Positions 1 to 21,253 of a DNA stretch of 64,000 bases are shown here, piece after piece; within the stretch, counting starts at the first letter, position 1, and the number at the start of each line of letters is the position of its first letter. The translations under genes were made by a program, and so were the position numbers. The DNA lies in NCBI GenBank assembly GCA_002841695.1, contig PHAN01000002.1, positions 90,807 through 154,806 of the forward strand, read 5' to 3'. Origin of the DNA: Elusimicrobia bacterium HGW-Elusimicrobia-1 (GTDB lineage Bacteria; Elusimicrobiota; Endomicrobiia; PHAN01). The notes under the pieces are model-generated. The model did not search any database and was not told the origin of the DNA. It saw nothing but the letters and a program-made list of their open reading frames with translations.

Positions 1-4
1 GGCG

Positions 5-3000
5 GTGATAAATTCAGTGACGGTTTCAGCCGGCGACGCCTTGTGGCGCGATGCGATTTCCGACCAGAGATCCGATAATCACAGCTCCACGCAACTTGAT
101 ATTTCTTCCGTCGGAATATCCTGTGACGAGTACAATTTATACATGTTTGTCGCTTTCGCGTCAACCGTGGCGGCGAATTTTGACGGCAGAAATTTTATCC
201 AGATAATGCTCGACAACGGCCTCACTTCCACGGAAAGAGTGTTCAGGGGAAGAGGCGTCGGCTCGGAGGACAGTTATGTCTCCGGCGATACCGCGTGGGA
301 GTATCTGTGCGAAATCGTAACGGACAACGATGTTTTCCGTGTCGAAGACAGCCAATTCTCAAACAGAAATTTCGGCGGATACTCGGAGCACAACGACAAT
401 TATTTTTATGAAGTGGCGATGCCTCTTTCAAATCTCGGCGGTAAAGAAAGATTTCTCGGCAAAACCGTTAATTTTACCGTCGCGACATTCTGGAATGATA
501 ACGGAGTAGTAGGCCAGTGGGGCGCAGGTAGTTCAAATATAGTTGATGTCGTCACATCTTCGGGAACCAACACCTGGAACGAGGTTTCCGACAGGGTAGT
601 GGATTATTACATGGCCATAACGCTCTCGACGTCAGGCGCCATAACCGCGGTAAGCGGCGCGACGGCGAACAGTGTTCCTCCGATGACGGAGCCGCAGCCG
701 GACGCCTCGGCCCCTCCGTCGGCGTTGGATTATATGCTTTACAATATTTTCGTTGATGCCTGGCGCGACGGCGACCCCGCGAACAATAATCCCACGGACA
801 CAAACAGTTACGGCGGCGACTTTCAGGGCGTAATGGACAGCGCGGACTACTTTAACGAGATGGGAATAAATATGCTGTGGTTTGCCCCCGTGCATCAGTT
901 CGGCGGAGGAATCTGGGGTTACAACCTTGACGACGCCTATCAGTTTATGAGCAGGTTCGGCGGGAGAGATAAATATATTGAGATGGCGAAGAAGGTTAAA
1001 AATCGCAACTTAAAAACGATGCTCGACTGGGTTCCGGGACAGGTTGGCGGCAAGGATTCTCCGACGGGCAAAAAATATCCTAATTATTTCCAGGACGAAA
1101 TCTTCGGCTACGGATTAAGGCAGGAGTTCGCCGAGCCGAGGGCGTATATGGTCAATAACGCGGTCTGGTGGTCGTCATTTACCGACGGATTCAGATTCGA
1201 TAATCCAAAATTCTGGGACAATGGCGACGGCCCCGGCAGATACGAATTCTGCCGCGTTCTGCGGTTTGCCGTAGACAGATGGAACCCCGAACTCTACATG
1301 ATGGGCGAGATACCTGGCACCGTCGGTAATTTCAACGAATACACCGGCTCTCTGGGACCGATGATTCACGGGGCTATTGATATGGCGAGCGGCGGTTATA
1401 AAGACGCGTGGGACCACCATATATGCGCGTGGGCAAGGCCGGGAGACGCCCAATCGCGAACGACCATCGGCGTGCGTTCGGGTCTCGACGAGCAGCAAGT
1501 GACATGGAAAAATGACCTCTCGATAAATCCGGTGATGATGGAAAACCACGACGAAACCCGGCTTATTTCAAGATACAGGCCCGGCGGAGCAAATGGCGAG
1601 TGGCAGCAGCGGGTGGCTTATATGACGGCTTTTCTCGTCGGCGGGCCCGCGAAGATTTTCTACGGCGGCGAAGTCGGGCTTGAAGGCCCTTACGGCGGCG
1701 GCTCGTCGGAGAAGATGGACAGAAACGGCAACGTCCGCCAGATGCTGTTCAACCGCGCCAATGAGTGGCCGTGGATAGCCGTCAGAGACAGCATAAGAAG
1801 AACACTTCAGGCGAAAGCGAACTTCCCCGAACTCAGGGGCGACCCCAAAAAAGGCGGCCGCGGCTGGTATACGGGCGGACAGTATGACGACAACGTTCTT
1901 GTCGTTGCCCGCACATGGGCCAACCCCGACAGAAAATCAATCGTTATGATAAACCGCTCGGCGGGGAACGTCCAGATGAGCAGTGTGGGCACAGGCGATA
2001 ACAATACTGTCTATAAAGATTGGTTGACCGATAAAAATTTTACTACAAATGCAAGCGGCATTCTTCAGGATAATGATAATACGGACGGAGATGGTAACCT
2101 TAATACTTTTAATGTGGATTCGCATAACGGCAGAATTTTAATCAGGGGCGGATACGACTGGGTGAATATAACCGGTTCCGTCAAAGACGGGGCGGGAAAT
2201 CCTGTCCCGGGCGCGGTCGTTGATATTGACAGAAAAAGTCACTGGACGACGACTACCGACGCCGGCGGTAACTACTCGCTGTCGGGGGATTTAAGAAAAG
2301 TCCTGACGGGCAATCGCACAATACGCGTATGGGCAAACGGTTTCGGCATCGTAGATATCTCGACCAACATTGTGATAGCGGGCGGTGTAAACAGGACGCA
2401 AAATTTCACTCTGACTGCCGACAACGCGCCGCCCCAGCCGCCTACGAACCTGAGCGGTCGGCCCAGAAAAAATGCCGCTATGATTTTCTGGCAGCCGAAC
2501 ACGGAGGGGGACATCCAGTCGTATATCGTTTATAGAAGCACGGTTTCCATTGCCGCCGGCTCATTCCCCGCGCCGTTAGTCGAGATTTTTTCTCCGTATT
2601 ATTATGACAACAATTTTGACGGTCGGATAAATTCCGACGGAAAACACGTGGATCTTCTTGAAAACGGCGCCACATACTATTACCGTGTCCGCGCTGTTGA
2701 CAGGAGCGGGAACAAATCCGCGCTTTCAAATCAAATAGCGATCGTTCCAAGACCGATAAAAGCCACCTTCTGGGTTGATACTAGAGATAGCGGGCAGTCG
2801 GTCGCATCCGTGGATGTGGAGGGAGACGCTCTGGCATTCGGCGATACCAAACCTGAAAGGAACGTCCGGGGATGGACACAATTGTTTTCCAACGGCGATG
2901 GGACATTCCAGAGAACTTTTGATATGGATGATTCCGACTTTATAGAATACAAATACGTGATTACGACCTCCGGCGGAGGAAGGATAGGGGAGGGCGACGC

Positions 3001-6000
3001 GGGGCATTTGTTCAATGACCCCGCAGGGACCAATGGGGCGGAAAATCGCGGCGAGATTTATCTTGACGCCATACCCAATGTGGAAATCAGGGACGAAGGC
3101 GACGGAACGATGCTTTTGCCGAACGTTTGGCGGTGGTATCAGGACAGAGCGCCGAGAGCGCCGTCGGGGGTTGGGATTTCAGCCGGTCCAAACATTTTAA
3201 CAACCGGCTGGACAAAAAACGCCGAGCCGGATTTACAATATTATACCGTTCAACGTTCGACATGGAATTCGGGATTTTCGGGCGCGGTCGCATCGGTTAA
3301 CATCGGCAAGGACCAGATTAGTTATGTCGACACGAATCTGCTCAATGGCAACACTTATTACTACAGGATCAGGGCGATAGACAGAAGGGCGAATATCGGC
3401 GATTGGTCTTCAACCATTTGGGCATATCCTCGGGCGGCGGATACAACCGCGCCTGTATCGCCATCGGGGTTGGCCGCGTATGGTTCGGGAACAAATGGGC
3501 TTGGATCGGTTGAAGTAAGATGGAATGCAAATTATGAAGGCGATTTGGCGGGATATAATATTCACCGCTCGACGGAAAGCGAGTTTGCGCCCGTCGCCGC
3601 CAATAAGTTAAACATCGTTTTGATTTCGCCGTCGCAGGAACCGCTTTACACCGACAAAAACACAACAACCGGCACGCAGTACTATTACAAGATTGTTGCA
3701 ATTGACGACAGCGGCAACACCTCAAACCCTTCCGTTCAACTTTCCGTAAAAATCATTCCGGTGACATTTAATGTCGATATGGGAAATATCAATCCTTCAA
3801 ACGTTCAAATACTCGGGAACACAAAACCGCTCGATTGGAGCGGAACAAATAGTTTGACGTGTCCGGCGGCCAGTACCTACACGATTACACTCGGCTTTGT
3901 TTCGGGAACTACGCTCTGGTATCGCTACGCCTATAACTCGGCTTCCGTCGAGGAACAGCCGTTTGCGACGTCTTCCTCGCAATACCGCGAGTATGTAATC
4001 GGGTATTCCACCGCCGTCGTCAGTAATGACTGGGAGCAAAACCCCGATATGGTTTCAGGCGTCAAGGTTTACGGCGGCGTCAACAAAGCATATCTTTACT
4101 GGGACGCGAACACGACCGCAGAGGATATCGCTGGATATAACATCTATCGCTCCGAGCCGCCCTCGACTACGCCCACACTTAAATTAAATGCGGGGCCCAC
4201 GAGTTATATTCAACCCTATACCGTCACAGGACTGGACACCGGCTCTACATATTACTTTTCGGTAAAAGCGGTTGATTCGGGGAGTCAGGTTTTGGAAAGC
4301 ACCGCCGCCTCGGTCGTTCCTGTTTTCATATCTTCGAGAGTTTACGTCCATTTCGGAATCCCGTTTTCAGTCGGACAATCAAGCGCGCCGTGGGGCGATG
4401 CCGACAAAATAAAGATGTATCTGGCCGTGCACAACTCGACGGATACGGATCTTTCCGTCTGGAACACTTCCGAAAGAGCAAATGTTACTGACGGAAAAAT
4501 GGTGATGACGGCCTCCGGCGACGGAACATATCGCGCTATGGTTCCTTTGGCTGTCGGAAATCGCTACAATTTTACATTCTTCGCGCAGACGACAAACAAT
4601 CCTCCGTCGGGCTTGAACGGCAACACCGAATATTACGATACAGTCCCGGATACGGGGAGTTTTATAGTTTCCAATTCATCAACGGGTATTTCTCCTCCGG
4701 CGGGCGTATCGGCTGTTTTTGCGCCGTTCGGGATAACCCGCGACGCCAGGCGTGTTCTGGTTTTGCCCTCTGATATTGCGGCCGGCTCCACGATGTACGT
4801 CTTTGCGAACTTCGGCTCCTCACCCACCGCGCCGACTTATATACAGGCCGTCGGCGGAAATAATAAAGTTACCCTTTACTGGTCGGCGCCGTACGGTTCG
4901 CCGTGGACGTATCCGTCTCCTGAAAAAACCGGCAATGTCCCTCTGGGCGGCGGCGAGTCGATGAAAGCGGCCGATGTCGTTGCCGGCGGAGTGTACCACA
5001 TTTTCGTCACCACATATAACCACGGCTCGTTTAATTCTTATACCGCAACAGTCACGCTTTCGGGCGGAACGATGAACTATACGTTTACGGGGCTTCAAAA
5101 TGGCGTAACTTATTACTATCTTATGCGTTCATCCGATACTTTCAAGGGACTTGTGGGAAATAATTTCAGCGTTTTGTCGGCGACCGTAAGCGCTCAGCCC
5201 ACGTCGGCGGCGGTTCCCGTAAGTGTCAGAGTAAACCGCGGGGCGCATCCATTGTGGAAAGCGGTGAGAAAAACAATCGCTTTTCAGGAAGGCACAAGCG
5301 TTCCCGCATGGGACGCCGACGGGAAGTCAAATATCACGCTGACAGGTAAAGCGGTAAATATGGTCGCCCCCGCCGATGATGCAACCGAGCAGGAATTCTC
5401 GGCGAACCTCATTCCGGGCACCTCGTATAATTTCATACTTTTCGCATACTCCACTTTTTCTATTGCGGGGCTTGAAACAAACACCACTTATTTTGATACC
5501 GTGCCGAACTTCGGCGCCGGCGGAATGATAACATCGACCTCGACCATTTCTATAACAGGGCACGGCAAAGCGCTTTGCGGGCCGGCGGGGCCGGCTTCCG
5601 ACGCAAGACGGATTTTGTATGTTCCGACCGATTTACCGTCGGGCTCCACACTTTACGTCTACTGCAACTTCGCCTCCAGCCCGAGCGCGGTTTATCTAAG
5701 TGCGTCCGTCGTGAGCACGTTTTCCGTCCAACTCGAATGGACGCCTTACGGCGCATGGGGAACGAGCGGCGAAAGTTTGAAAGCCGCCGACGTCATAGCC
5801 GGCGGACATTATTATGTATGGCGTTCAAGCGTCAGTTCGGCGGGGCCGTGGAATCTCTGGGTTTCGACGTCGGCGAGAAACTGGATTGACGCGGATCTCA
5901 ACGCGCCGGGCGACGGGCTGGGGCTTGAAGCAGGGCGGACTTATTTTTATGTCGTCGTGTCGTCGGACTCATATAGCGGAAACTTTATACCCAATATGTA

Positions 6001-6298
6001 CCGCGCCGGCGCGCCGGAGTTTTCCTCGTCGGACGCATCCGTCACGCCGCGCGAAAAAGCGCCGGTCTATTTCAAAGTCGAAAATAATTTCTTCGACGAA
6101 AGATACGTCCGCGCGATAGAAATCGCCATACTGCGCCCTCACCCCGCCCCTCTCCCATCGAGGGAGAGGGAGTTTTTGCCGCATAGTTTCCTCTCCCCTT
6201 ATCAAAAGGGGGATGGCTGCAAATACCCCGTCAAACCTTCGGTTTGCCACCCCTTTAATAAAGGGGAATACAGCCGGGGTATTATTCCCCTCTTTTAG
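5..6298 (+). CDS. Giant secreted GH13-family alpha-amylase-like protein with long FN3 domain array (5' end lies upstream of window; last ~60 codons run into palindromic repeats)
   Basis: Uninterrupted 2097-codon ORF from window edge. GH13-like motifs: GGDFQGV...MGINMLWFAPV, GFRFD (region II), GEIPG (region III), MMENHDETR (region IV). Repeated FN3-type signatures YYYRVRAVDRSGNKS, YYYRIRAIDRRANIG, YYYKIVAIDDSGNTS. Confidence 0.8.
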   Translation: MINSVTVSAGDALWRDAISDQRSDNHSSTQLDISSVGISCDEYNLYMFVAFASTVAANFDGRNFIQIMLDNGLTSTERVFRGRGVGSEDSYVSGDTAWEYLCEIVTDNDVFRVEDSQFSNRNFGGYSEHNDNYFYEVAMPLSNLGGKERFLGKTVNFTVATFWNDNGVVGQWGAGSSNIVDVVTSSGTNTWNEVSDRVVDYYMAITLSTSGAITAVSGATANSVPPMTEPQPDASAPPSALDYMLYNIFVDAWRDGDPANNNPTDTNSYGGDFQGVMDSADYFNEMGINMLWFAPVHQFGGGIWGYNLDDAYQFMSRFGGRDKYIEMAKKVKNRNLKTMLDWVPGQVGGKDSPTGKKYPNYFQDEIFGYGLRQEFAEPRAYMVNNAVWWSSFTDGFRFDNPKFWDNGDGPGRYEFCRVLRFAVDRWNPELYMMGEIPGTVGNFNEYTGSLGPMIHGAIDMASGGYKDAWDHHICAWARPGDAQSRTTIGVRSGLDEQQVTWKNDLSINPVMMENHDETRLISRYRPGGANGEWQQRVAYMTAFLVGGPAKIFYGGEVGLEGPYGGGSSEKMDRNGNVRQMLFNRANEWPWIAVRDSIRRTLQAKANFPELRGDPKKGGRGWYTGGQYDDNVLVVARTWANPDRKSIVMINRSAGNVQMSSVGTGDNNTVYKDWLTDKNFTTNASGILQDNDNTDGDGNLNTFNVDSHNGRILIRGGYDWVNITGSVKDGAGNPVPGAVVDIDRKSHWTTTTDAGGNYSLSGDLRKVLTGNRTIRVWANGFGIVDISTNIVIAGGVNRTQNFTLTADNAPPQPPTNLSGRPRKNAAMIFWQPNTEGDIQSYIVYRSTVSIAAGSFPAPLVEIFSPYYYDNNFDGRINSDGKHVDLLENGATYYYRVRAVDRSGNKSALSNQIAIVPRPIKATFWVDTRDSGQSVASVDVEGDALAFGDTKPERNVRGWTQLFSNGDGTFQRTFDMDDSDFIEYKYVITTSGGGRIGEGDAGHLFNDPAGTNGAENRGEIYLDAIPNVEIRDEGDGTMLLPNVWRWYQDRAPRAPSGVGISAGPNILTTGWTKNAEPDLQYYTVQRSTWNSGFSGAVASVNIGKDQISYVDTNLLNGNTYYYRIRAIDRRANIGDWSSTIWAYPRAADTTAPVSPSGLAAYGSGTNGLGSVEVRWNANYEGDLAGYNIHRSTESEFAPVAANKLNIVLISPSQEPLYTDKNTTTGTQYYYKIVAIDDSGNTSNPSVQLSVKIIPVTFNVDMGNINPSNVQILGNTKPLDWSGTNSLTCPAASTYTITLGFVSGTTLWYRYAYNSASVEEQPFATSSSQYREYVIGYSTAVVSNDWEQNPDMVSGVKVYGGVNKAYLYWDANTTAEDIAGYNIYRSEPPSTTPTLKLNAGPTSYIQPYTVTGLDTGSTYYFSVKAVDSGSQVLESTAASVVPVFISSRVYVHFGIPFSVGQSSAPWGDADKIKMYLAVHNSTDTDLSVWNTSERANVTDGKMVMTASGDGTYRAMVPLAVGNRYNFTFFAQTTNNPPSGLNGNTEYYDTVPDTGSFIVSNSSTGISPPAGVSAVFAPFGITRDARRVLVLPSDIAAGSTMYVFANFGSSPTAPTYIQAVGGNNKVTLYWSAPYGSPWTYPSPEKTGNVPLGGGESMKAADVVAGGVYHIFVTTYNHGSFNSYTATVTLSGGTMNYTFTGLQNGVTYYYLMRSSDTFKGLVGNNFSVLSATVSAQPTSAAVPVSVRVNRGAHPLWKAVRKTIAFQEGTSVPAWDADGKSNITLTGKAVNMVAPADDATEQEFSANLIPGTSYNFILFAYSTFSIAGLETNTTYFDTVPNFGAGGMITSTSTISITGHGKALCGPAGPASDARRILYVPTDLPSGSTLYVYCNFASSPSAVYLSASVVSTFSVQLEWTPYGAWGTSGESLKAADVIAGGHYYVWRSSVSSAGPWNLWVSTSARNWIDADLNAPGDGLGLEAGRTYFYVVVSSDSYSGNFIPNMYRAGAPEFSSSDASVTPREKAPVYFKVENNFFDERYVRAIEIAILRPHPAPLPSREREFLPHSFLSPYQKGDGCKYPVKPSVCHPFNKGEYSRGIIPLF

Positions 6299-6370
6299 AG
6301 GGGTGTCCGAAGGACGAGGTGTTATTCCCCTTTTACAAAAGGGGTGTCCCGAAGGGACGGGGTATTTGAG
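6137..6370. repeat. Cluster of short CCCCTTT-N-AAAGGGG type hairpins (P1-related) overlapping the 3' end of the giant gene
   Basis: Successive inverted repeats: ccctctcccatcgagggagaggg, cacccctttaataaaggggaa, ttcccctcttttagaggggtg, ttccccttttacaaaaggggtg. Confidence 0.6.
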
Positions 6371-6447
6371 GGGTAAAATGATGGCGCGATTTTAACAGGA
6401 TATGTGATAAAAAAAGTCAAGGGTAAACCCTTGACTGGGAGGTAGTT

Positions 6448-7584
6448 ATGATGTACAGATTGTTTAGGTTGTTGTTGTGCGCCGCAATGGCCGCGTTAGT
6501 GGGCGCTTCGGCGCTTTTTGCGGCATCGGCCAACGCCCCTTGGGGCGACGCAGCGCAGATACAGGTCGGGGTGGTGATTCATCCGGGTGTCAGCGTCCCG
6601 GCGTGGCCGGAAGTCAACAAAAACGATATAACCGGAGACGCCACATCGTTCATCGTTGCGGGGAAAAGCGCGATGGAAGCCGTCGGAGACGGCACTTACC
6701 AGTTCAGAACCGACCTGGTACCCGGTGGCGTCTATAACTATATCTTTGGCGCCAGGATAATGCAGGGCGCATGGGGGTTCGATGCCGAAAAAGATTACGC
6801 CGAACCTATCCCCGACGGTTCCCAGCAGGACGACTCGGGCAATTACGCGACGAGCGATCCCGGCACTTTCGTATCGCTATCCTCGACGGCGTACTCGTCG
6901 ACGGGCGATGGCGGGGTGTCGTACGTCAATATCGTCGTCGACAACAATGGAAATTCAAGAAGAAAGTTAGATATGCCCACGGTTGATCCGGGCACGACCA
7001 TTTACGTCTTCAACAACTTCGGCTCGCTTCCGCGCGGAGTCGCGAATTACTCTGTGAAGATATCGTCCGGACGGGTGGATCTCAACTGGCAAGGCGCGCT
7101 GGGAACGTGGGGGTCGGGTATGCCTTCCGTCGACGCCCTCGGCGGGAGAAATCTGCTCTACGTCAGCACGTCCAACTCCGCGGGGCCTTACTCGCTTCTG
7201 GCGGATCTCGCCGGAACGGCCACGCATTACGCTCACTCGGGACTTGCCAACGGTACGTCGTATTATTTCATATTCGTCTCATCCGATCCCTACGGAGGTG
7301 TAACGCTGTCCACATACACTGCGTCGAAATCGCTTTGGGCGAATCTTTCGCGCGGCATACCGCCGACCGGCACGATGTGGAACTCCGGCGAATACGCGCA
7401 TAATGATAAATACGGCAAGCCGTCGGGCCCCGTTCCGGTCTATTTCAAAGTCGAAAATATCGACGAGAACTACGTCAGGGAGCACGGCGATCTCGTTTAT
7501 CTGACTCCGTGGCACGAGGACGGCAGATTATACCGACACAAGATTCAGGGCGTGTTTCTTTCCGCTTATCTGCCGAAGGGATGA
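6448..7584 (+). CDS. Secreted protein, paralogous to the C-terminal modules of the giant GH13 protein (unknown function)
   Basis: SD GGGAGG upstream of ATG; signal-peptide-like N-terminus MMYRLFRLLLCAAMAALVGASALFAASA; shared motifs GDGTYQF..YNYIFGA, TIYVFNNFGS, PVYFKVEN with gene 5..6298. Confidence 0.7.
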   Translation: MMYRLFRLLLCAAMAALVGASALFAASANAPWGDAAQIQVGVVIHPGVSVPAWPEVNKNDITGDATSFIVAGKSAMEAVGDGTYQFRTDLVPGGVYNYIFGARIMQGAWGFDAEKDYAEPIPDGSQQDDSGNYATSDPGTFVSLSSTAYSSTGDGGVSYVNIVVDNNGNSRRKLDMPTVDPGTTIYVFNNFGSLPRGVANYSVKISSGRVDLNWQGALGTWGSGMPSVDALGGRNLLYVSTSNSAGPYSLLADLAGTATHYAHSGLANGTSYYFIFVSSDPYGGVTLSTYTASKSLWANLSRGIPPTGTMWNSGEYAHNDKYGKPSGPVPVYFKVENIDENYVREHGDLVYLTPWHEDGRLYRHKIQGVFLSAYLPKG

Positions 7585-7635
7585 GGATAAAATATAGAAT
7601 TAAGTAACCGATACAAACGCGTTGGCACATTACGT

Positions 7636-7720
7636 AAAATCTCCCCTAACCCCTCTTTTTCAAAGAGGGGGAATAAGGGAACAATCCCCCTTTATTAAAG
7701 GGGGATAAAGGGGGATTTTT
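7636..7720. repeat. P1 palindromic element (AAATCCCCCT...CCCCCTTTnAAAGGGGG...AGGGGGATTT)
   Basis: Terminal inverted repeat aaaatctcccct / agggggatttt enclosing two internal hairpins; same family at 39948, 40383, 50775, 58173. Confidence 0.7.
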
Positions 7721-7751
7721 GAAATCGTCTCGTTTGTATTAAATTGCTGAT

Positions 7752-8849
7752 ATGAAAAAATCGAAGACGTTTCTATCGGTGGCTCTTTTAGTCGTCGCGT
7801 TTGCGTCGGCGGGTAGGATTTGCGCCCAACTCCCCGCCGGCGCGGGCGCGTTCGCGCAGTGGGGGAATTTCCAGAAAAAAATAGCCCTCCAGCGCGGCGT
7901 CGGCGTAAGCGCATGGGAAGACCGAGGCGACATAAGCTACGAGCAGTACGGGATGTATGCCGCGACGATGTCTCCCGTCGGAGACGGCACGTATCAGATA
8001 AAATTTGATTTGTATCCGGGCGCGGAATATAATTTCGCGTTCTTCGCCGTTTCGACGACGCCTTTGGCCGGCGTCACGACAGGTCTCACTTATTTCGACG
8101 CCGTTCCGAATCACGGCTCGGACGCGGCTTTCATCGCCTCGACCTCGCCCGCGGCGCCGCTTGCTTCCGATACGCGCTCGGCGGAATACAGGTCCATAGG
8201 CGGCGACGCCCGTCGATACGTCGCAATACCGGATCTCGCGCAGGGCACGACGTTTTACGTTTTCAGCAATTGGGCTTCGACCCCATCCGCCCCGACGGAC
8301 CTTCGCGCCCGGCCCGGCGACTCCAAGGTTCATCTTACATGGGGCGCGCCCTACGGCTGGTGGGGCACGGGCTCCCAACAATACAAAGCCATTGATGTAA
8401 TCGCGGGGGGAGCGTATGTTATTTACCGCTCGTCGGTGGCGGCGGGCGGCCCATACGAAATAGTGGCCTCGACTCCCGGACATTGTTTCTCATGGACGGA
8501 TACGAACGTTCAGAACGGAGTGCGATATTATTACGCCGTCTCGTCGAGCGACGCTTACAAAGGCGACGCCGAGGGGGTTCTCGGCGATGTCAATTTATGC
8601 TCGGACGCGGCGTCGTCACAGACGCCGGGAGCATCTCCGGGTCAGGCGGTTCCGATAAGATTCAGAGTCGAAGGCATCGACTGGAAGGTGATAAAAGAGA
8701 AGGGTTATCTCGCGTGGCTCACGCCGAACGCGGCTTCGGATGGGGCGCCGCCGTGCCCGCCCGCAAGAATCCCCGCGCGGCTCGTCGAAGTAAAACTTTC
8801 GAAAACATTGAAAGACAGAATAAGTGATGCGATTAGATGGTTGTTGTAG
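7752..8849 (+). CDS. Secreted protein of the same module family (unknown function)
   Basis: Signal peptide MKKSKTFLSVALLVVAFASAGRICAQ; motifs GDGTYQIKFDLYPGAEYNFAFFA, TYFDAVPNHG, TTFYVFSNWAS, PIRFRVEG shared with 6448..7584 and C-terminus of 5..6298. Confidence 0.7.
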   Translation: MKKSKTFLSVALLVVAFASAGRICAQLPAGAGAFAQWGNFQKKIALQRGVGVSAWEDRGDISYEQYGMYAATMSPVGDGTYQIKFDLYPGAEYNFAFFAVSTTPLAGVTTGLTYFDAVPNHGSDAAFIASTSPAAPLASDTRSAEYRSIGGDARRYVAIPDLAQGTTFYVFSNWASTPSAPTDLRARPGDSKVHLTWGAPYGWWGTGSQQYKAIDVIAGGAYVIYRSSVAAGGPYEIVASTPGHCFSWTDTNVQNGVRYYYAVSSSDAYKGDAEGVLGDVNLCSDAASSQTPGASPGQAVPIRFRVEGIDWKVIKEKGYLAWLTPNAASDGAPPCPPARIPARLVEVKLSKTLKDRISDAIRWLL

Positions 8850-8906
8850 TGTAGGGGGCTTTATGTTCGTAACAAATTTACGTATTTACGCCCTGTAGTG
8901 TAGGGG

Positions 8907-9080
8907 CTTGTCCCCGTAGGCAAAAGGACTTGTCCCCGTAGGCAAAAGGACTTGTCTCCGTAGGCAAAAGGACTTGTCTCCGTAGGCAAAAGGGCTTGTC
9001 CCCGTAGGCAAAAGGGCTTGTCCCCGTAGGCAAAAGGACTTGTCTCCGTAGACAAAAGGGCTTGTCCCCGTAGACAAAAA
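8907..9080. repeat. Tandem repeat, 8 copies of a 22-bp unit (cttgtccccgtaggcaaaagga), ending at the RAYT start codon
   Basis: Eight head-to-tail units with few substitutions, no spacers; first unit overlaps REP-like gtagtgtaggggcttgtcccc. Confidence 0.85.
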
Positions 9081-9538
9081 TGGAACCACCAAAAAAAATC
9101 CGGCTGGAAAAAGAACTATATTCACAACCCGGAAGAATATATTTTGTTACTGTTAATACAAATTTTAAAAAAGGTTTTTTTATAGAGGACAACTTTAATC
9201 GCGAAATTATACAGTGTTTATTGACGGAGAGAAATAACAGATATAGTATTTTCGTATATTGTTTGATGCCTGACCATATTCATTTTTTAATTTCAACAAA
9301 TGCTGAAAATTATTCAATTACTGATTTTGTGAATAGATTTAAAGGATTGACAACAAGAATTGGTTGGAAATACGGTGTTGAAAAAGTTCTATGGCAAAGA
9401 AGATTTTACGATCATATATTAAGAAAGCAAGAAGATGCTAAAAAAATTGCGGAGTATATAGTTAGCAATCCTGTAAGAAAAGGTTTGGTTAAAAATTGGA
9501 AAGAATATCCATATTGTGGGTATATAGATGAATTTTAA
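9080..9538 (+). CDS. REP-associated tyrosine transposase (IS200/IS605 TnpA-like, HUH Y1 family)
   Basis: 152 aa; HUH motif in CLMPDHIHFLIS; conserved C-terminal tyrosine region AEYIVSNPVRKGLV; codon usage AT-rich relative to neighbours. Confidence 0.8.
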   Translation: MEPPKKIRLEKELYSQPGRIYFVTVNTNFKKGFFIEDNFNREIIQCLLTERNNRYSIFVYCLMPDHIHFLISTNAENYSITDFVNRFKGLTTRIGWKYGVEKVLWQRRFYDHILRKQEDAKKIAEYIVSNPVRKGLVKNWKEYPYCGYIDEF

Positions 9539-12215
9539 ATTACGCCCGTGTAGTGTAGGGATTTATGCCCGTAACAAATTTGCGTATTTACGCCCACAAG
9601 GGGCTACATTGCATACGTATTTACGCCCGCAAGGGGCTACACTACTGTTATTATTTATTTGCAATTTGCTTTATGCTCTTGAAATCGGAACTCCTGCGGG
9701 TGAGACGGGCGGCTTTGCGACGCAGCAGAAACATTTTTACGGCGACTATCTTTCGTCGGGCTCGCCTTCGGACTCCGTTTGGAGTTCGTCGGCGGCGATG
9801 ACACGCGAGGCGCTCGCCGACGGCACGACGATATACTTCGCGGACATTCCGGTAACGGCGGGCAACACCTTTTACTACTATTTTAAAACTCAATCGTCGG
9901 GCGAGCAAAAAACGCCGGTATACAGAACTATCTACGTCAGCAGTTCGAATCCCGGCGAAATTATCGTCGACGGAACGGCGTATCCGGCGGCGGGTCTCGT
10001 TGCGGCGGCTACGGTCTGGCACAACTTCTCGGACGCTCCGCCGCCTCCGGCCAATCTCACTTCTTTCTGGTCAGCCGCCAACGACTTCGTATCTCTTGAA
10101 TGGGACAACCCGCTTTTCGACGGAACCGCTGTTTTCGATCTTACGGGCGGAGGCGGTTATGAGATATGGCGCTCAAGCGTATCGTTTTCCGACGGTATGG
10201 CCGTGATATCTTCCGTCACGGCGATTTTAAGCCGCATGAGTTTTCCTGATTCGTCCGTCGAGGCGGGCGCGACTTATTATTACCGCGTCCGCGCCTACGA
10301 CGCGTATCTTCCGCCAATGCTTTCGTCTCCCGCGCAAACTTCGCCCGCATCGAAAAGAAATTACGTCACGGTTGCCCTCGAGGTCGACGTATTCGCGCTA
10401 TCGGGAGTAACCGGGGTTTCCGTTATCGGAGATTTCACCTCGCCGCCGTTTTACAAAGGCCGTCTGAGTATGGATTACGCCGGCGGCGGCAAATGGCGGC
10501 TCGAACACGCCGACGCTTCGCTTTACTCCGGAGCGCTCATCAAATACAAATATCTCGTCAACGGCGAACTTTATGAACCCGATCTGCCGCCTGCGCTCGG
10601 AGGGCCGTACAGAAATGTCGCGATAAAGGATGAGGGTTCGCGCAGAATGACTATTAAAGACGTCTGGTCGGTCTGGACTCCGACGGGAACGCCGTCGAAC
10701 CTGCCGCGGTTTATGACGGCTTTTTCCGCCGAGCCGTCCGCCGGCGCCGTCAAAATCACATGGGACTGCGACCCCTTTTCGACGGGCACTCTTCTGGGTT
10801 ACGCACTTGAGCGCTCGTCGTTCGCCGCCGGCGGTTATTCCGTAATATCTTCGCCGGATATCCTGGGCCCCGCGACATTCTACTACTCGGACGTCCTCGC
10901 CGACGGCTCGACGGCTTTCTACAGGATCGCCGCCGTATCCTCGTCGGGACAATGGTCGGAGTTCTCCGATGCCGTAAAGGCCAATCCTCCGTCCGTCGGG
11001 GAATCTCTGCCGCGATACAATCCCGCCGCCCAAGAGGTTTTCGCGGCGGGCGATTTTATTTGCGATATCGGTAATCTGACGGGTGAAGTCATACTTGCGT
11101 GGAATGCCGCGTCTCATGACGCGGCCTACGGCGCGGCGAGCGCATACATTGTCAAATACGCGACATTCCCGATAATCGGCGCCGATTCTTTTCATCGCGC
11201 AAAGACCGCCGGCGCGGCGCGCGGTTTGCCGTTGGGCGCGACGGGGCGTCTGACGACTTTGAACCTCGGCGGGGACTGCCCGGGTTTTTACTTTGCGGTC
11301 TGCGCGGTCTACGGCTCGTGGCACGTCGTGGGATTTTCAACTTCCGTCGTGGCGGTAGCCCCCAAGGCCTTCGACGCCAAGGATGGCGGCCTCGTCGTCA
11401 AAACGTTGCGTTTCGCGGGATCCTCGCCGGAGGCGCCGAGCGTGGCGGCGATGGAGTTTCCGCCGGGTGCGCTTCAACAGGGCGAATATCTCGGAGTCAT
11501 AAAAAATCTCGGGGAATTACGGCTCGACGGATCGGTCGCGGCCAAGATAGACGCGGCCAATTCACTCGCCTCGCGTGATGCCAGATTCGGCTATGTCGCG
11601 GATAACGAGAACCTTGCGTCGTCGAGCGTTTTCGCTTTCGATCTTTACGATTCGGCGAAAAACGATTACTTTAATCCCGTCGCCGGCAGAAGAGCGCGCA
11701 AAGACATAGTCGTCTCGCTGTCTTACGCAGGGCTGTCCATTGTGCCGGAGGAGTTGAAAGTCGCGCGCCTCAACGAAAAAAACGATTTCTGGCGGATACT
11801 GAAAGATATCAAACCCGATATAGACCGCGACGCCAAGCTCATAAAGTTCAAAACTAAGGAACTCTCGGTCTACGCACTCTTTCGCGCGCCGGCTCCCGCC
11901 GCCGATCTTTCGAACGTAGCGGTTTATCCGAACCCCTTCAAGCCGCACGACGGCTTACGCGAAACGGGCGACTATTCGACGGGAATCAGATTCACCAACC
12001 TCACACGGAACGCGGATATCAGGATTTATAATATAGCCGGCGAATTGGTCAGATACAAAGGGCTTGAAGCCGACGAGATCGGAGAGTGCCGCTGGGACGC
12101 CATGAACGACGACGGTGAACGCGTCGCAAGCGGCGTTTACATTTTCATTGCGAAAGATGAAAGCGTCAAGGTCGGCAAAAACCATTTCACAGGAAAAGTG
12201 GGAATTGTAAGATAA
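9528..12215 (+). CDS. Large FN3-containing surface protein with C-terminal FlgD-Ig/T9SS-like sorting domain (start codon uncertain; N-terminus encoded by REP sequence)
   Basis: 895-aa ORF; FN3 signature ATYYYRVRAYD; C-terminus AVYPNPFKP...IRIYNIAGELVRY...WDAMNDDGERVASGVYIFIAKD...GKVGIVR. Confidence 0.7.
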   Translation: MNFKLRPCSVGIYARNKFAYLRPQGATLHTYLRPQGATLLLLFICNLLYALEIGTPAGETGGFATQQKHFYGDYLSSGSPSDSVWSSSAAMTREALADGTTIYFADIPVTAGNTFYYYFKTQSSGEQKTPVYRTIYVSSSNPGEIIVDGTAYPAAGLVAAATVWHNFSDAPPPPANLTSFWSAANDFVSLEWDNPLFDGTAVFDLTGGGGYEIWRSSVSFSDGMAVISSVTAILSRMSFPDSSVEAGATYYYRVRAYDAYLPPMLSSPAQTSPASKRNYVTVALEVDVFALSGVTGVSVIGDFTSPPFYKGRLSMDYAGGGKWRLEHADASLYSGALIKYKYLVNGELYEPDLPPALGGPYRNVAIKDEGSRRMTIKDVWSVWTPTGTPSNLPRFMTAFSAEPSAGAVKITWDCDPFSTGTLLGYALERSSFAAGGYSVISSPDILGPATFYYSDVLADGSTAFYRIAAVSSSGQWSEFSDAVKANPPSVGESLPRYNPAAQEVFAAGDFICDIGNLTGEVILAWNAASHDAAYGAASAYIVKYATFPIIGADSFHRAKTAGAARGLPLGATGRLTTLNLGGDCPGFYFAVCAVYGSWHVVGFSTSVVAVAPKAFDAKDGGLVVKTLRFAGSSPEAPSVAAMEFPPGALQQGEYLGVIKNLGELRLDGSVAAKIDAANSLASRDARFGYVADNENLASSSVFAFDLYDSAKNDYFNPVAGRRARKDIVVSLSYAGLSIVPEELKVARLNEKNDFWRILKDIKPDIDRDAKLIKFKTKELSVYALFRAPAPAADLSNVAVYPNPFKPHDGLRETGDYSTGIRFTNLTRNADIRIYNIAGELVRYKGLEADEIGECRWDAMNDDGERVASGVYIFIAKDESVKVGKNHFTGKVGIVR

Positions 12216-12257: not shown

Positions 12258-13250
12258 ATGAGAAAATTGTGTCTTTCGACTAGTGTTTCGACGGCAACTC
12301 GCGGACGAGGACGGCCCCTGCGACGGATTGCCCTTGTCCTTGCCTTTACTATCCACTATACACTGACCACTAACCACTCTCTACACGCCGCCGGCACGAC
12401 ATCCGCGACTTTTCTTAAACTCGGTGTCGGGGCGAGACCGGTGGGGATGGCCTCGGCGTTCGCAGGCGTGGCCGACGACGTCAACTCCGTCGCATGGAAC
12501 CCTGCGGGGCTCGCCTCAGTCGACGCGAAAGAATTTTCGTTTATGCATCTTGAACATTTTCAGGACGTGCGCTACGATTCGCTGTGCTATGCTCATCCTA
12601 TGAAAAAAACGGTCGTCGCATTCGGCTTTGGCTATCTGTATACCGACGAGATAACAAGGACTTTCATAGACGACGATGTTTATGCGGGTTTTCGCGCGCA
12701 GGGAGATTACCGGCTCCAGGATAGGACGTTTTTTGTTGCGGCGGCAAGACGAATCTCCGATGATAAGGCCGTCGGAGCGCTCGTCAGGTGGCTTTCGGAG
12801 AGGATAGAAGATAATGAAGCGACGGGGCTCGCCGCCGACGTCGGATATCTTCATCTCGTGACGGACCGTCTCGCGTTCGGTTTGTCCGTCCAGAATATCG
12901 GCGGGACGATAAGATTCATCGCGGCCGACGAAATGCTGCCGCTGACTTTTCGCGCGGGCTTCGGATATGACGTTGTCGCCGGAAAACTCAAACTCGCGCT
13001 CGACTTCGTCAAGCCCGTCGACTATCAACTTTCGATCAATCTCGGCGCCGAGTACAGGGCGTTTGACGCGCTCGCCGTCAGAGGCGGATGGAGCTTCAAA
13101 GATTTGTTCTACGACGACCGGCTTAACGGAACATCCGGCGCGGCTCTGGGGATGGGGTTTTCTTTTCACAATTATTCTCTTGACTACGCTTTCGCGCCTT
13201 ATGGAGAGCTCGGTTATTCTCACAGAATATCGTTCGGGGGAAAGTTTTGA
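12258..13250 (+). CDS. Beta-barrel outer-membrane protein, PorV/PorQ- or PorP/SprF-like
   Basis: N-terminal motif LKLGVGARPVGMASAFAGVADDVNSVAWNPAGLA; alternating beta-strand-like pattern; C-terminal ...ISFGGKF (terminal Phe). Confidence 0.6.
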   Translation: MRKLCLSTSVSTATRGRGRPLRRIALVLAFTIHYTLTTNHSLHAAGTTSATFLKLGVGARPVGMASAFAGVADDVNSVAWNPAGLASVDAKEFSFMHLEHFQDVRYDSLCYAHPMKKTVVAFGFGYLYTDEITRTFIDDDVYAGFRAQGDYRLQDRTFFVAAARRISDDKAVGALVRWLSERIEDNEATGLAADVGYLHLVTDRLAFGLSVQNIGGTIRFIAADEMLPLTFRAGFGYDVVAGKLKLALDFVKPVDYQLSINLGAEYRAFDALAVRGGWSFKDLFYDDRLNGTSGAALGMGFSFHNYSLDYAFAPYGELGYSHRISFGGKF

Positions 13251-13254
13251 AAAA

Positions 13255-13425
13255 GCAGGGTTTAGAAAGACAGGGTTTAGGGCATAGGGTCTAGGGTTTA
13301 GTAAAATGAATAAAAAACAGAGTATAAAAAAGACAGGGTTTAGGGTTCAGGGTTTAGGGGTTAGGTTTTTTTTCTTTTTTCTTTTTTCTATTTTCTATCC
13401 CCTAACCCATAGACCCTATACCCTG
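13255..13425. repeat. Leader palindrome P3 built from GGGTTTAGGG-type units; contains start codon and signal-peptide coding region of 13306..15414
   Basis: cagggtttagggcatagggtctagggtttag ... cagggtttagggttcagggtttaggggttagg ... ctatcccctaacccatagaccctataccctg; near-identical copy at 22629-22772. Confidence 0.75.
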
Positions 13426-15414
13426 CTTTATGCTACAACCCCCCACACAATTGCTATCGACGGCAACATCGCCGAATGGCGCAAAGACGAGTTGATTTAC
13501 GACGACTCCTGGAACGACTCTCCGTGGGGCGCGCAAAATGAAATCCACCGATTGTACGCCACATGGGACGACTCGGCTTTGTACCTTGGAGTATCGGGCG
13601 TTCAGAAGGACGGCAACAACCTTATCGTCTACATAGACACATCCCCGCTCGACGGAATCGCGGACGCCTCCCTTCTGAAAGATCCGGGTAATCCCTCGGG
13701 GATGTGGTGGTGGCGCAGAGGGAATAAATTCGCCCACGGCTTCAGACCGGATTTTCAGTGGCATCTTTACGAGATGAAACTGGATCCCGCGGATGGCCAC
13801 GGATTTTTCCGGCTCTATCCCGACGATACGACCGCGAATCTCAACGGCTCCGTCGCGCAGAAGGCCTCCGGCGGGGGCGCGGGCAATATCGGTTACGCCG
13901 AGATAAAGATACCGTGGCAGATTTTATTCGGCGCGGCATCTTTCCCGTCGGGAGAGGAAATCAGAATCGCGGCGGCTGTCACGGGCGGTATGGATACGCG
14001 AGGCACGCTCGATTCTTCCGACGATCTTTTCGGCTCGGCGCGCGACACGATACCCGACCAAAAGGCGGTTTTCCCCGAAGTATGGCACGATTCTTCTACG
14101 ATAGACACGTGGCTCGCTCTGAATCTTTCGGGAACCTCCGGCGACCGGTCGCCGGTGCCGCGCTCGCTCGTCTTAACTCCGCAAAGTCCGTTCGATGCGA
14201 AGGTTTCCTGGCAGACGCGCGGGATCATCGAAAGCAATCTCGACGAATACCGGCTGTATTACGCCCAAGACGGAACCGACGGGCGTTACGTCCGCGCGGC
14301 ATCGACGGAGACGTCCGCCGCGATAGAAGGCCTCGTCGCGGGTGCGACCTATCATTTTTTTCTGAGGGCGGTATATTCGGGCGAGGGGGAAGGCGGTTGT
14401 TCTGAAACGTTGGTTTCGCGGCTGCTGCGCCCTTCGCTCGCGCATTCGGCGCAAAGTGTATTTTGCTTTCCCGGTAAAATCCTCGATATTGAAGTCGAAT
14501 CCTCCGCCGCGCCGTCGGCGGTTGCGTTGCGCTATTTGTTTGACTCTGAAAATGTCTGGCGCACGTCGGCGATGAACATCGCCGGATCCAAGGCCTCATA
14601 CGCTCTTTGGCTGCCTTCAATCCCGGCCACACTGAAATATTATTTCGAAATAACGGACTCGGCCGGCACTCATCTTCTGCCCGCCTCGGCGCCGGCCTTC
14701 TCGTATGCCGTAAAGATAGAGTCGCGCGGTTCGGCGTACGCGCCGCTCTCGACGCAAACTTCGACGCTCGATTTCGGGGGAGGAGTCCTGATGGAAATAC
14801 CGCCGGACGGGCTCTCGACCGCGACGACCATCTATTTCGAATATTCATCGTCGAACGGCGATCTTTACGGCGACGGCGGACTCAGAGCGCTCGCGTATTA
14901 CGATTTTTACGCGCTTGATAGAAGCGGCAGCCGCGTCGGAGTGGTTTTCGAAAAGCCCGCGTTGATTAAGCTCAGATATTTCGACGACGACATCGCCGGC
15001 GTATCCGAATATGAGCTTTCCGTCGGGCGCATAGCCGGCGCAAGAAACGTGGCGCTCAAAGGAACGGTTTCCGCGGCCGAAAATAAAATATCTTTCGAGA
15101 CGTCCCATTTTTCCCGCTTTGCGATTTTTTCAGGAGAGACGGCCGTCTCGCCGATTGCCGGGCCGCTTAAAAAAGTCGTGCGGCCCACATTTAATCCGTC
15201 TCTGGGCGAAGTCGTGGAGTTCGACTGCGAGACGCCGTCGAAGATAGAAATATTCGATATGCGCGGTCGCCTAATCCGGACTTTTGACGGGAACTTCTGG
15301 GACGGCCGCGATTCGCTCGGCTCCAAAACTGCGCCCGGCGTATATCTTTATCGTCTCAGTACGCCCGAGCCGGGAAGAAAGAATATTTACGGCAGTTGTG
15401 TGGTAATCAGGTAA
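13306..15414 (+). CDS. Secreted surface protein with N-terminal CBM9/DOMON-like domain and C-terminal FlgD-Ig/T9SS-like domain
   Basis: 702 aa; N-terminal TIAIDGNIAEW...LYATWDDSALYLGVSGV; C-terminus RPTFNPSLGEVVEF...IEIFDMRGRLIRTF...WDGRDSLGSKTAPGVYLYRL...CVVIR. Confidence 0.7.
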   Translation: MNKKQSIKKTGFRVQGLGVRFFFFFLFSIFYPLTHRPYTLLYATTPHTIAIDGNIAEWRKDELIYDDSWNDSPWGAQNEIHRLYATWDDSALYLGVSGVQKDGNNLIVYIDTSPLDGIADASLLKDPGNPSGMWWWRRGNKFAHGFRPDFQWHLYEMKLDPADGHGFFRLYPDDTTANLNGSVAQKASGGGAGNIGYAEIKIPWQILFGAASFPSGEEIRIAAAVTGGMDTRGTLDSSDDLFGSARDTIPDQKAVFPEVWHDSSTIDTWLALNLSGTSGDRSPVPRSLVLTPQSPFDAKVSWQTRGIIESNLDEYRLYYAQDGTDGRYVRAASTETSAAIEGLVAGATYHFFLRAVYSGEGEGGCSETLVSRLLRPSLAHSAQSVFCFPGKILDIEVESSAAPSAVALRYLFDSENVWRTSAMNIAGSKASYALWLPSIPATLKYYFEITDSAGTHLLPASAPAFSYAVKIESRGSAYAPLSTQTSTLDFGGGVLMEIPPDGLSTATTIYFEYSSSNGDLYGDGGLRALAYYDFYALDRSGSRVGVVFEKPALIKLRYFDDDIAGVSEYELSVGRIAGARNVALKGTVSAAENKISFETSHFSRFAIFSGETAVSPIAGPLKKVVRPTFNPSLGEVVEFDCETPSKIEIFDMRGRLIRTFDGNFWDGRDSLGSKTAPGVYLYRLSTPEPGRKNIYGSCVVIR

Positions 15415-15437
15415 CCGTGTGTTAATCGGATAACAAA

Positions 15438-15620
15438 TTGAGTCAATTGAAAAACCCTTATCACGTCATTCCCGCGAAAGCGGGAATCCAGAGTTTCAGT
15501 CGTAGTATGGATTCGTCCCCGAATGTCTTTATCGGGGATAACAACATTCGGGAATGACCCCCGATAAAAACGTTCGAGGGCAGGCATACGGGAAAAAGGT
15601 TGGTTTTTCAATTGACTCAA
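15438..15620. mobile_element. MITE-like element with terminal inverted repeats and nested internal palindrome
   Basis: TIRs ttgagtcaattgaaaaacc / ggtttttcaattgactcaa; internal gtcattcccgcgaaagcgggaatcc ... cgggaatgac. Confidence 0.7.
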
Positions 15621-15660
15621 ATTAAAAGGTGAAAATATTTACGGTGGCTGGCTCGATAAA

Positions 15661-16623
15661 ATGATGATGACGAAACATTCGTTTGCGCGTCTTCGCGCGG
15701 CGGCATTGGCGGCAGCGGTGCTATGTGTTTGCGCCGCGGCGTCGAGATCCTACGAGCCGGGCGCAAACGCGGCTATTTTATCGTCGGCGGGAGGCGGCGC
15801 CGCCGCGATGTCGGCGCATTATGTCTGGCTCAATCCCGCCGCCGCGGCCTTCGCCGCCGACGGATTTGCGTCGAGCGTCGGCTATAAAAAGTTTTTCGCC
15901 GGGGTTGACACTTCCGCCGCAGAAGGAGTGCCGGGATATATCAGGCCGGACATCTCCGAGACGACGCTCGAAGTTCTCTGTCCGTTCGGCGACGGTCTGA
16001 CGGCCGGCGCGGGATTCTATTCGCTCGGGCTCAAGGATTATTTTTCGCGTCAGAACCTGGTTCTTTACGCCGCATATCCGGTCGGGGGCTCGACCTATTC
16101 CTCGCAGGGCGATCATCTGTCGTCGGATGACCGTATCGTCATAGGCGCCGCGCTCAAACAGGTTTCGATTTCTTATGTCGCGGACGAATATACCTCCGAT
16201 TTTTTCTCCGTGTACTCAGGGCGTAAAAGCGCGCTGACTCTGGACGTCGGGGCGATATATACCGCCGGTCGTCTGCGATTGGGAGTCGTCGGGCGCAATC
16301 TCATTCCAGCGAATCTCGGCATCTATGAAAACGCGCCTGAGGATGTCTCCTTCCTCATCGGCGCGGCGGCGGTCTTCCGGCCATACGAGTTGCGGCTCGA
16401 CTTCGCCGCATCAGGATACAAGGGTTTCACCGAAGCGATACCTTCGGTCGAGATAAAAGCCGGCGCGGCGGATTTTCGTCTGGGCGTCAATTCGTCGCAG
16501 GCGGCCGCCGGCGCGACCCTGCGTTCCGGCGATATTGCCCTGACGGCGGCTTTCATATATCCCTACGTGATATCCGGCGGCTTCGGCGATTTCGCGGCCG
16601 AGTTTTCTTACAGGATAAAATAA
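15661..16623 (+). CDS. Outer-membrane beta-barrel-like protein (divergent member of the same partner family)
   Basis: Signal peptide MMMTKHSFARLRAAALAAAVLCVCAAA; motif MSAHYVWLNPAAAAFAADG; stop overlaps start of next gene. Confidence 0.5.
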   Translation: MMMTKHSFARLRAAALAAAVLCVCAAASRSYEPGANAAILSSAGGGAAAMSAHYVWLNPAAAAFAADGFASSVGYKKFFAGVDTSAAEGVPGYIRPDISETTLEVLCPFGDGLTAGAGFYSLGLKDYFSRQNLVLYAAYPVGGSTYSSQGDHLSSDDRIVIGAALKQVSISYVADEYTSDFFSVYSGRKSALTLDVGAIYTAGRLRLGVVGRNLIPANLGIYENAPEDVSFLIGAAAVFRPYELRLDFAASGYKGFTEAIPSVEIKAGAADFRLGVNSSQAAAGATLRSGDIALTAAFIYPYVISGGFGDFAAEFSYRIK

Positions 16624-18014: not shown

Positions 18015-18018
18015 GGAT

Positions 18019-20267: not shown

Positions 20268-20274
20268 AAAAAGG

Positions 20275-20332
20275 ATGTAGCGGTGGGATTGCCATCCCAC
20301 AAATTCGGCGAATAGCAATTCGCCCGCTACAT
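20275..20332. repeat. Palindromic intergenic element P6 (TGTAGCGG...CCGCTACA enclosing two hairpins)
   Basis: gatgtagcggtgggattgccatcccac...ggcgaatagcaattcgcccgctacat; related copies at 21196-21253 and 39231-39288. Confidence 0.7.
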
Positions 20333-20352
20333 TATTTCAACGGAGGAAAAAA

Positions 20353-21195: not shown

Positions 21196-21253
21196 ATGTA
21201 GCGCGAGGATTTATCCTCGCTAATAAAAAAGCGAACTTAAAAGTTCGCGCTAC
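21196..21253. repeat. Palindromic intergenic element P6-related
   Basis: atgtagcgcgaggatttatcctcgc...gcgaacttaaaagttcgcgctaca. Confidence 0.6.

Follow-up and report, generated by a model that had tools for sequence, protein, structure and literature searches.

Why should the gene for a giant amylase end in the same repeated unit that its two downstream neighbours carry as separate secreted proteins? The question is raised by a 64,000-nucleotide stretch of the Elusimicrobia bacterium HGW-Elusimicrobia-1 genome (contig PHAN01000002.1, positions 90,807 to 154,806; hereafter the window). An open reading frame (ORF) on its forward strand (2-6298), whose 5' part is cut off by the window start, encodes the last 2,098 aa of a giant protein, here called G. 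G contains a GH13 alpha-amylase catalytic domain from aa 249 onward (E 1.4e-22), a CarboxypepD_reg domain, several fibronectin type III (FN3) domains and two weak CBM20-like domains. Genes A (6448-7584, 378 aa) and B (7752-8849, 365 aa; CVU77_01345) follow on the same strand. A first-pass annotation had described a module occurring at least twice in the giant gene and once in each of these two genes, and had suggested a self-comparison of the protein set. Run as an all-against-all BLASTP of G, A and B, this comparison recovered the repeat at E 1e-27 to 1e-47 (A-B 1.4e-38; A-G 2.4e-27 and 5.9e-27; B-G 8.5e-47 and 1.5e-39), with all pairs aligning over ~300-350 residues at 27-34% identity. These values are far above chance and rule out a chance or low-complexity repeat. 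Two copies of this ~300-aa unit (aa ~1460-1757 and 1759-2037) stand in the C-terminal part of G, and A and B have one each.

The motifs attributed to the module were all found in frame. GDGTY stands at 4517-4531 (G copy 1), 6685-6699 (A) and 7980-7994 (B), its place in G copy 2 being taken by DDATE (5375-5389); YNFxFFA was located at 4565-4585, 5426-5446, 6733-6753 and 8028-8048, Y(Y/F)DxVP(D/N) at 4631-4651, 5489-5509, 6796-6816 and 8091-8111, YVFxNFxSxP at 4796-4825, 5654-5683, 7003-7032 and 8256-8285, and P(V/I)xFxVE at 5216-5236, 6062-6082, 7435-7455 and 8652-8672. The places first given for the two copies in G (around 4450-4700 and 5300-5520) fall in the right region and span the first domain only; the modules themselves extend slightly further, with boundaries at aa 1446-1745 and 1739-2027. 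A and B are real genes, since both encode N-terminal signal peptides (6448-6531 and 7752-7829) and have orthologues in other metagenome-assembled genomes (MAGs) at 60-88% identity; together with the conserved synteny, this rules out pseudogenes. The signal peptides are ordinary, and the sequence GRIC in B, which most homologues lack, does not constitute a lipobox. An antisense ORF inside gene B (7788-8483, minus strand, 231 aa) is unsupported as a gene and probably spurious.

Local hidden Markov models (HMMs) built from a 29-sequence family alignment divide the module into a first domain of ~128 aa, here called Ndom, an FN3 domain of ~110 aa and a C-terminal tail. In G, Ndom copy 1 (4382-4768, aa 1461-1589; independent E 2e-28; motifs GDGTY, YNFTFFA, YYDTVPD and DARR) is followed by FN3 copy 1 (4775-5149, aa 1592-1716), and Ndom copy 2 (5240-5626, aa 1747-1875) by FN3 copy 2 (5636-5980, aa 1879-1993). 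The corresponding domains are encoded at 6529-6978 and 6982-7299 in A, and at 7845-8231 and 8235-8564 in B. The first-pass annotation was right in calling the YVF(x)NF(x)S segment FN3-like: the second domain has the seven-stranded FN3 beta-sandwich fold and follows the pattern YVF.NW.S.P ... GG.Y.IYRS ... YYY.V.SSD.Y.G. Pfam fn3 (PF00041) was matched by 7/29 members with a best E of 3e-4, B scoring 14 bits, below the gathering cutoff of 25, and positions 171-264 of the module profile pull in more than 13,000 FN3-repeat proteins. Compared with other FN3 domains it is unremarkable, save for the subfamily signature GG.Y.IYRS..YYY.V.SSD.Y.G.

Ndom follows the pattern W..(Q)K.I.(I)Q.G..SAW....M.PVGDGTY.....L.PG..YNF.FFA....G....TYYD.VP..G......GDARR..IP. 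Scans of G, A, B and all 29 family members returned no Pfam or NCBIfam family for Ndom or the tail; PF02922, PF16561 and PF00686 matched Ndom in none of the 29, and X25_BaPul_like gave weak matches in two (E 0.03). True CBM48 domains elsewhere in the window reach E 1e-50, in contrast to Ndom's lack of any Pfam match. In a profile search of the PDB, the top matches were CBM48 domains of two GH13 enzymes, at non-significant E-values of 0.14-0.78, over the segment GDGW(F)...V.PG.EYNF. Profile-profile comparison with hhalign aligned Ndom to the giants' own CBM20-like domains (Prob 63%, E 7e-5, 85-91 co-linear columns) and to a triple-CBM48 protein of the window (E 2.4e-4). A further weak line names the CBM20 of glucoamylase, laforin and STBD1, the CBM48 of AMPK-beta, pullulanase, and the starch-binding domain of beta-amylase. 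Foldseek searches of the PDB with the predicted model gave nothing significant, and jackhmmer searches seeded with the CBM20-like domains of the giants failed to retrieve Ndom. Four weak lines thus converge, tentatively, on the starch/glycogen-binding CBM48/CBM20 group, and Ndom is best called a very divergent CBM48/20-like beta-sandwich domain. From the CBM48/CBM20 domains of AMPK-beta (its glycogen-binding domain), SEX4, laforin, isoamylase (N-domain) and glucoamylase (starch-binding domain) it differs in having no Pfam or NCBIfam match, in its own invariant GDGT, YN and RR, in an insert between FFA and YYD, and in having its first strand on the preceding polypeptide. The module had been expected to be a lineage-specific domain family, unless profile and structure searches resolved it into ordinary FN3 or Ig domains with no core of its own. 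The repeat is indeed real and lineage-restricted. It is not a new fold, and resolves into a CBM48/20-like domain plus FN3; the FN3 part is ordinary and was recognised in the searches, whereas Ndom showed only weak CBM48/CBM20 ties and keeps its invariant core.

What sets the module apart is where its first strand is encoded. The P(V/I)(Y/R)F(K/R)VE segment had been read as the closing part of the module; judged from its sequence it is instead strand 1 (b1) of the next Ndom. In the G tandem, VPVSVRVNRGAHPLW, which closes copy 1, is at the same time the beginning of copy 2. A conserved alternating-hydrophobic strand precedes Ndom in 16/16 distinct fused copies from giants of several genomes (for example VYVHFG, V.VRVN and IAKIRVN); AlphaFold2 (AF2) pairs b1 inside Ndom (E4-10), and hhalign places it on strand 1 of CBM20-like domains. 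G itself carries b1 before copy 1 (RVYVHFG, 4337-4357) and before copy 2 (PVSVRVN, 5216-5236, the predicted strand E4-10), the latter being the covalent counterpart of a donor strand. After FN3 copy 2, a conserved linker (IPNMYRAGAPEFSSSDAS..) leads to a third b1 (APVYFKVE, 6062-6082; linker and strand together 5981-6082), which is an orphan, with no Ndom after it in cis.

The stand-alone proteins present the reverse arrangement. Their signal peptide runs to within about 12 residues or fewer of the conserved Trp with no b1 between, and when an HMM of b1 plus Ndom is applied to them, the b1 columns are filled only by the signal-peptide h-region; their Ndoms therefore lack b1. Their C-termini carry it: b1 lies at 7435-7455 (PVYFKVE) in the tail of A (7420-7581) and at 8652-8672 (PIRFRVE) in that of B (8637-8798). 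In a scan of 439 ORF C-termini with a b1 HMM, the scores above background all belonged to giants, module proteins and class II C-type proteins (both classes are described below), and b1 is orphaned at all upstream C-termini. This is, at the level of sequence, the distribution expected of a donor strand: b1 is absent from stand-alone and C-type Ndoms and present before all fused ones.

The residues that follow the orphan b1 of G form a variable extension (6083-6298), of which the last ~45 codons lie on palindromic repeat DNA. G+C-rich palindromes (6148-6170, and 6250-6270 / 6283-6303 / 6323-6343) make up these codons and the start of the spacer between G and A (region 6148-6343). Because 71 residues follow b1 in G, compared with about 12-35 in other giants, and because palindromic DNA lies beneath them, the odd extension may be a read-through into intergenic REP-like (repetitive extragenic palindromic) DNA.

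The same arrangement recurs beyond the window. The family is small: a profile search at 50% clustering gave ~45 clusters of end-to-end proteins of ~330-400 aa, together with C-terminal modules in giants, from MAGs labelled Elusimicrobia/Endomicrobiia, Omnitrophota, Lindowbacteria, Hydrogenedentota, Spirochaetes and Brevinema; a homologue search with the G C-terminus returned three proteins only. Upstream ORFs were examined in 25 loci (about 21 distinct after merging duplicate contigs), and synteny was strict, with a giant GH13 protein directly upstream of the module gene. A giant was present upstream in all loci except L018; L024 has one other ORF in between, and in L015 the tail of another module protein takes the upstream position. 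In class I loci (Elusimicrobia/Omnitrophota type, including the window) the giant has one or two fused Ndom-FN3 units and ends in a conserved linker (IPNMYR.GAPEFSS.DAS), an orphan b1 (PVYFKV) and freely diverging residues. In class II loci (Lindowbacteria, Hydrogenedentota and spirochaete type) the giant has no fused module and stops at, or a few residues past, b1 ('..VTPGGYVYVDFRN', '..TPNSVVWVHFRN', '..TPNNSMYVIFKN', '..PIWVRFRVERPD..'). These ends, whose extreme C-terminus (..YVYVDFRN) is homologous to the RVYVHFG strand of G, are co-linear with G '..ISSRVYVHFG|IPFSVGQSSAPWGD', and the next gene encodes a signal peptide, Ndom without b1, FN3 and a tail. P0056, a stand-alone orthologue of G copy 2 (59% identity) starting SP|APKSPWSEVRK, is a second, independent split at the same place. 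In a Hydrogenedentota MAG (L007, 6681-7046), a small 23S_rRNA_IVP / bAvd-like gene lies between the giant and the module gene, and in P0033 such a part is apparently fused in frame to the N-terminus of the module protein; it is probably an insertion or a gene-calling artefact.

These split points bear on one alternative account, a plain tandem duplication of a CBM+FN3 unit without any inter-subunit role, in which the shared motifs would reflect common ancestry only. Such duplication is common in giant surface proteins, and further CBM+FN3 units are repeated within G itself (aa 918-1140 and 1251-1435). We nonetheless consider this account very improbable: it does not fit the strict gene order across phyla, nor split points that fall inside a domain, nor the gene overlaps seen in L001, where giant and module gene share 20 nt and the stop-to-stop frames of the next pair abut (gap -3).

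Downstream of B, the series of b1-less domains continues in C895 (9528-12215), the product of the gene that follows an inserted IS200-like element. After a signal peptide, C895 has a diverged Ndom without b1 (aa ~55-185), which reads 'LEIGTPAGETGGFATQQKHFYG...AMTREALADGTTIYFADIPVTAGNTFYYYF', and an FN3 of the same type (aa 162-260); together these occupy 9690-10307 on the forward strand, and we propose them as the acceptor of the B tail. A profile of 13 such C-type N-termini aligned with the Ndom profile (hhalign Prob 84.5%, E 7e-6), the alignment opening just past the b1 columns, and an HMM of C-type N-termini matches B at 3e-7. At its other end, C895 has a FlgD_ig / CHU_C-type sorting domain (11967-12152, forward strand; FlgD_ig 29.1 bits against a cutoff of 27, CHU_C 18.7 bits) resembling those of the type IX secretion system (T9SS), a candidate chain terminator and anchor. 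C-type proteins with this ending occur in the window, L004, L005, L010, L013, L015, L017 and L025. Those of L006 and L007 end in a further FN3 and b1 ('EVDVYFKVEK*', 'IAVYFKVENREE..'), and there the next gene is again of acceptor type. In the window the donors G, A and B equal the acceptors A, B and C895 in number, and the counts are also equal in the architectures of L001, L005 and L013.

The element inserted between B and C895 (8856-9641) consists of about nine tandem 22-nt repeats (GGRCTTGTCYCCGTAGGCAAAA, 8904-9079) and, directly downstream, an IS200-like Y1 transposase ORF (9080-9538; PF01797, E 6.6e-11); 38-nt direct repeats (8856-8893 and 9558-9595, 89%) bound the whole insertion, which looks like a unit of the REP-array/RAYT type (REP-associated tyrosine transposase). 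The annotated C895 start at 9528 reads through the right-hand repeat, with YLRPQGATL occurring twice, so that translation probably begins at a later position. In an Endomicrobiia relative (L008, 881-2407), a Y1-transposase-like sequence occupies the same place.

Does the b1 of a stand-alone protein serve its neighbour or itself? The tail, ~52 aa long, follows a low-complexity linker of 20-40 aa (22-40 residues from FN3 to b1 by another count) and comprises b1 (PVYFKVE), a short helix (IDWDYV..HG), b2 (VVYLTP) and b3 (KIPGRI.RVYLP). It is not claimed to be a truncated Ndom, as hhalign gave only E 0.2-0.7 against b1 plus Ndom and about 0.008 against CBM20-like starts. If the tail gave b1 to its own Ndom, A and B would be monomeric, SusE/F-like surface glucan-binding proteins, and the b1 of the giants would be what past gene fusions or fissions left behind. 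In keeping with this, AF2 models B as a compact monomer (pTM 0.71) with a confident tail strand; the linker could span the way back, and type V pilins are self-complemented before assembly (PMC13655056). However, self-complementation offers no partner either to the orphan b1 conserved in roughly 20 distinct giants or to the b1-less Ndom of C-type proteins, which lack a tail, and a relic b1 is unlikely to be kept across phyla while the residues just after it diverge freely. We therefore regard it as unlikely.

Alternatively, the conserved element at the C-terminus, be it b1 alone or b1 with the remaining tail, might be a signal for sorting or attachment, recognised by machinery for export or anchoring such as the PorV/PorP-like barrels of the locus; the internal copies in G would then be fusion remnants. 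Its position agrees with this, always within 75 residues of the C-terminus, as does its co-occurrence with T9SS-type C-terminal domain (CTD) proteins and with PorV/UPF0164- and PorP/SprF-like outer-membrane proteins. Yet the element is seen only on the Ndom/FN3 system and never on other cargo: a profile search with Ndom and tail, FN3 removed, found neither part in another architecture, which argues against a general sorting signal. Proteins of this genome with a recognisable sorting domain use another, of the FlgD_ig/CHU_C type, and Pfam and NCBIfam scans for a T9SS-type sorting domain (Por_Secre_tail, CHU_C or FlgD_ig) were negative in G, A and B. Moreover, b1 is conserved in its internal copies too, where it aligns with the first strand of CBM20-like domains, and a sorting role leaves open why the first domain of each following gene is without exactly that strand. 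We judge it improbable.

None of these alternatives accounts as well for three features taken together: the orphan b1 that the giants conserve, a b1-less Ndom in C-type proteins that have no tail, and splits that always fall after b1. For this reason we prefer strand donation, the most economical reading. The module is a two-domain unit, a putatively alpha-glucan-binding Ndom of CBM48/CBM20 type followed by an FN3 spacer, whose b1 is encoded apart and would be supplied by the C-terminal end of the preceding unit. Within the giant the supply is covalent (FN3, linker, b1, Ndom). Between genes it would be non-covalent: G ends in an orphan b1, A and B would be secreted with a b1-less Ndom and a tail opening with b1, and C895 would close the chain with a b1-less Ndom at its start and a T9SS-type sorting domain at its end. 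It seems to us somewhat probable that G, A, B and C895 form, in this order, a donor-strand-complemented chain, an alpha-glucan-binding and -degrading complex on the outer cell surface. Such a chain would multiply starch/glycogen-binding sites beside the GH13 catalytic domain and tether the amylase to an outer-membrane anchor made of the CTD protein and PorV/PorP-like barrels. The repeat, its domain composition, the distribution of b1, the synteny and the split points are shown by the comparisons above; insertion of b1 in trans, the subunit order, glucan binding and anchoring are the parts that we infer. Binding of alpha-glucan by Ndom would fit its context, namely the GH13 giant and the CBM48 proteins, GH31 and ABC sugar transporter further along the window. 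Three points complicate this reading: the AF2 monomer of B is compact and its tail may dock in cis; the stand-alone tail holds an extra helix, b2 and b3 beyond b1; and every similarity of Ndom to CBM48/20 is weak. B-type proteins have, in addition, an amphipathic C-terminal helix after the tail (KTLKDRISDAIRWLL; 8799-8846 in B; AF2 pLDDT about 93), shared by the homologues P0002, P0007 and P0009-P0011. The L004 giant closes with a similar ending ('..IFELVWKRFFGL'). Docking and membrane association are possible roles of this helix.

A surface amylase accompanied by several non-catalytic starch-binding proteins is known from Sus (SusG with SusE/F). The amylosome of Ruminococcus bromii is likewise a cell-surface assembly of amylase(s) and several starch-binding proteins that are non-catalytic (PMC4611034). 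Those systems assemble by cohesin-dockerin pairs or by association with lipoproteins and a TonB-dependent transporter, whereas the proposed chain would use strand complementation and a T9SS-type CTD protein. In mechanism, it would be closer to the type V pili of Bacteroidia (FimA/Mfa1), in which C-terminal donor strand(s) replace the N-terminal strand of the next subunit in a protease-mediated process (PMC13655056). The likeness, by analogy of mechanism only, lies in a C-terminal donor for a missing N-terminal strand, in possibly self-complemented monomers and in a terminator or anchor subunit that ends the chain (PMC13655056). The module proteins have no sequence or fold relation to pilins: their fold is CBM-like plus FN3 in place of the two-domain pilin fold, and they have no lipoprotein signal or lipobox, no Arg-gingipain site and no N-terminal anchor strand to be removed there. 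The acceptor is without its strand genetically, not through proteolysis, and the chain would be a defined hetero-oligomer ending a giant enzyme rather than a homopolymeric fibre, in other host phyla. Chaperone-usher pili and TasA also complete an incomplete Ig-like fold with a neighbour's strand (PMC9674648, PMC9046445), but there an N-terminal extension donates and the C-terminal strand is missing; no chaperone or usher genes were seen in the amylase locus. Literature searches on this family, or on donor strands in amylase complexes, found nothing relevant, and as far as our searches went the distribution of the first strand of Ndom over successive genes is unusual and undescribed.

The genes downstream of C895 form a conserved block (window 12258-19296; L004 13960-21050): a PorV/UPF0164/FadL-like outer-membrane beta-barrel (12258-13250, forward strand), an FN3 protein of ~700 aa whose C-terminus is T9SS-like, a PorP/SprF-like (TraF_2-like) outer-membrane protein (15661-16623, forward strand) and two consecutive GGDEF diguanylate cyclases, a pair that suggests cyclic di-GMP-linked control of the surface complex. 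In an unclassified MAG (L006, 18627-19880) the UPF0164/PorV-like barrel of the locus is fused to CBM48/AMPK1_CBM domains, which places glucan binding directly on an outer-membrane component. The region that follows in the window (19326-38960) is an alpha-glucan utilisation island. It encodes ABC sugar permeases and a binding protein (19326-22627), a CBM48 protein (26339-28363), a protein carrying three CBM48/AMPK1_CBM/X25 domains in tandem (28843-29859), a GH31 (30302-32470, minus strand) and two GH13 enzymes with CBM48 (32645-35083, minus strand, and 36495-38960). A second giant (40565-47803, 2,412 aa) has FN3, Ig_Rha78A_N, Kelch-like and CarboxypepD_reg-like domains, but neither a GH13 domain nor a b1 ending; on visual inspection, its N-terminal domain ('TITIDAALADWQSNE..FYFTWDASNFYFAY') is like the start of the 702-aa protein encoded in the amylase locus (13306-15414; 'HTIAIDGNIAEWRKDE..LYATWDDSALYLGV').

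Whether several uncultivated phyla share the arrangement in full seems to us evenly balanced: pilus-like complementation of split CBM48-like domains would link a GH13 giant, one to several CBM-FN3 subunits and a base with T9SS-type anchoring, each gene encoding the missing first strand of the next gene's domain, in place of the cohesin-dockerin pairs of an amylosome. If this is true, donor-strand complementation, known from pili and fibres, would also assemble a defined hetero-oligomeric enzyme complex, and gene order, read as a b1 at the C-terminus of one protein and then a signal peptide with a b1-less domain in the next, would predict subunit order in uncultivated bacteria. Split-strand CBM/FN3 pairs could also act as orthogonal, self-assembling protein connectors. 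For the organisms themselves, it would mean a new, very divergent CBM48/20-like family tied to giant amylases, and would explain how surface amylases of 2,000-4,000 aa are tethered in phyla without cohesin-dockerin or Sus-type systems.

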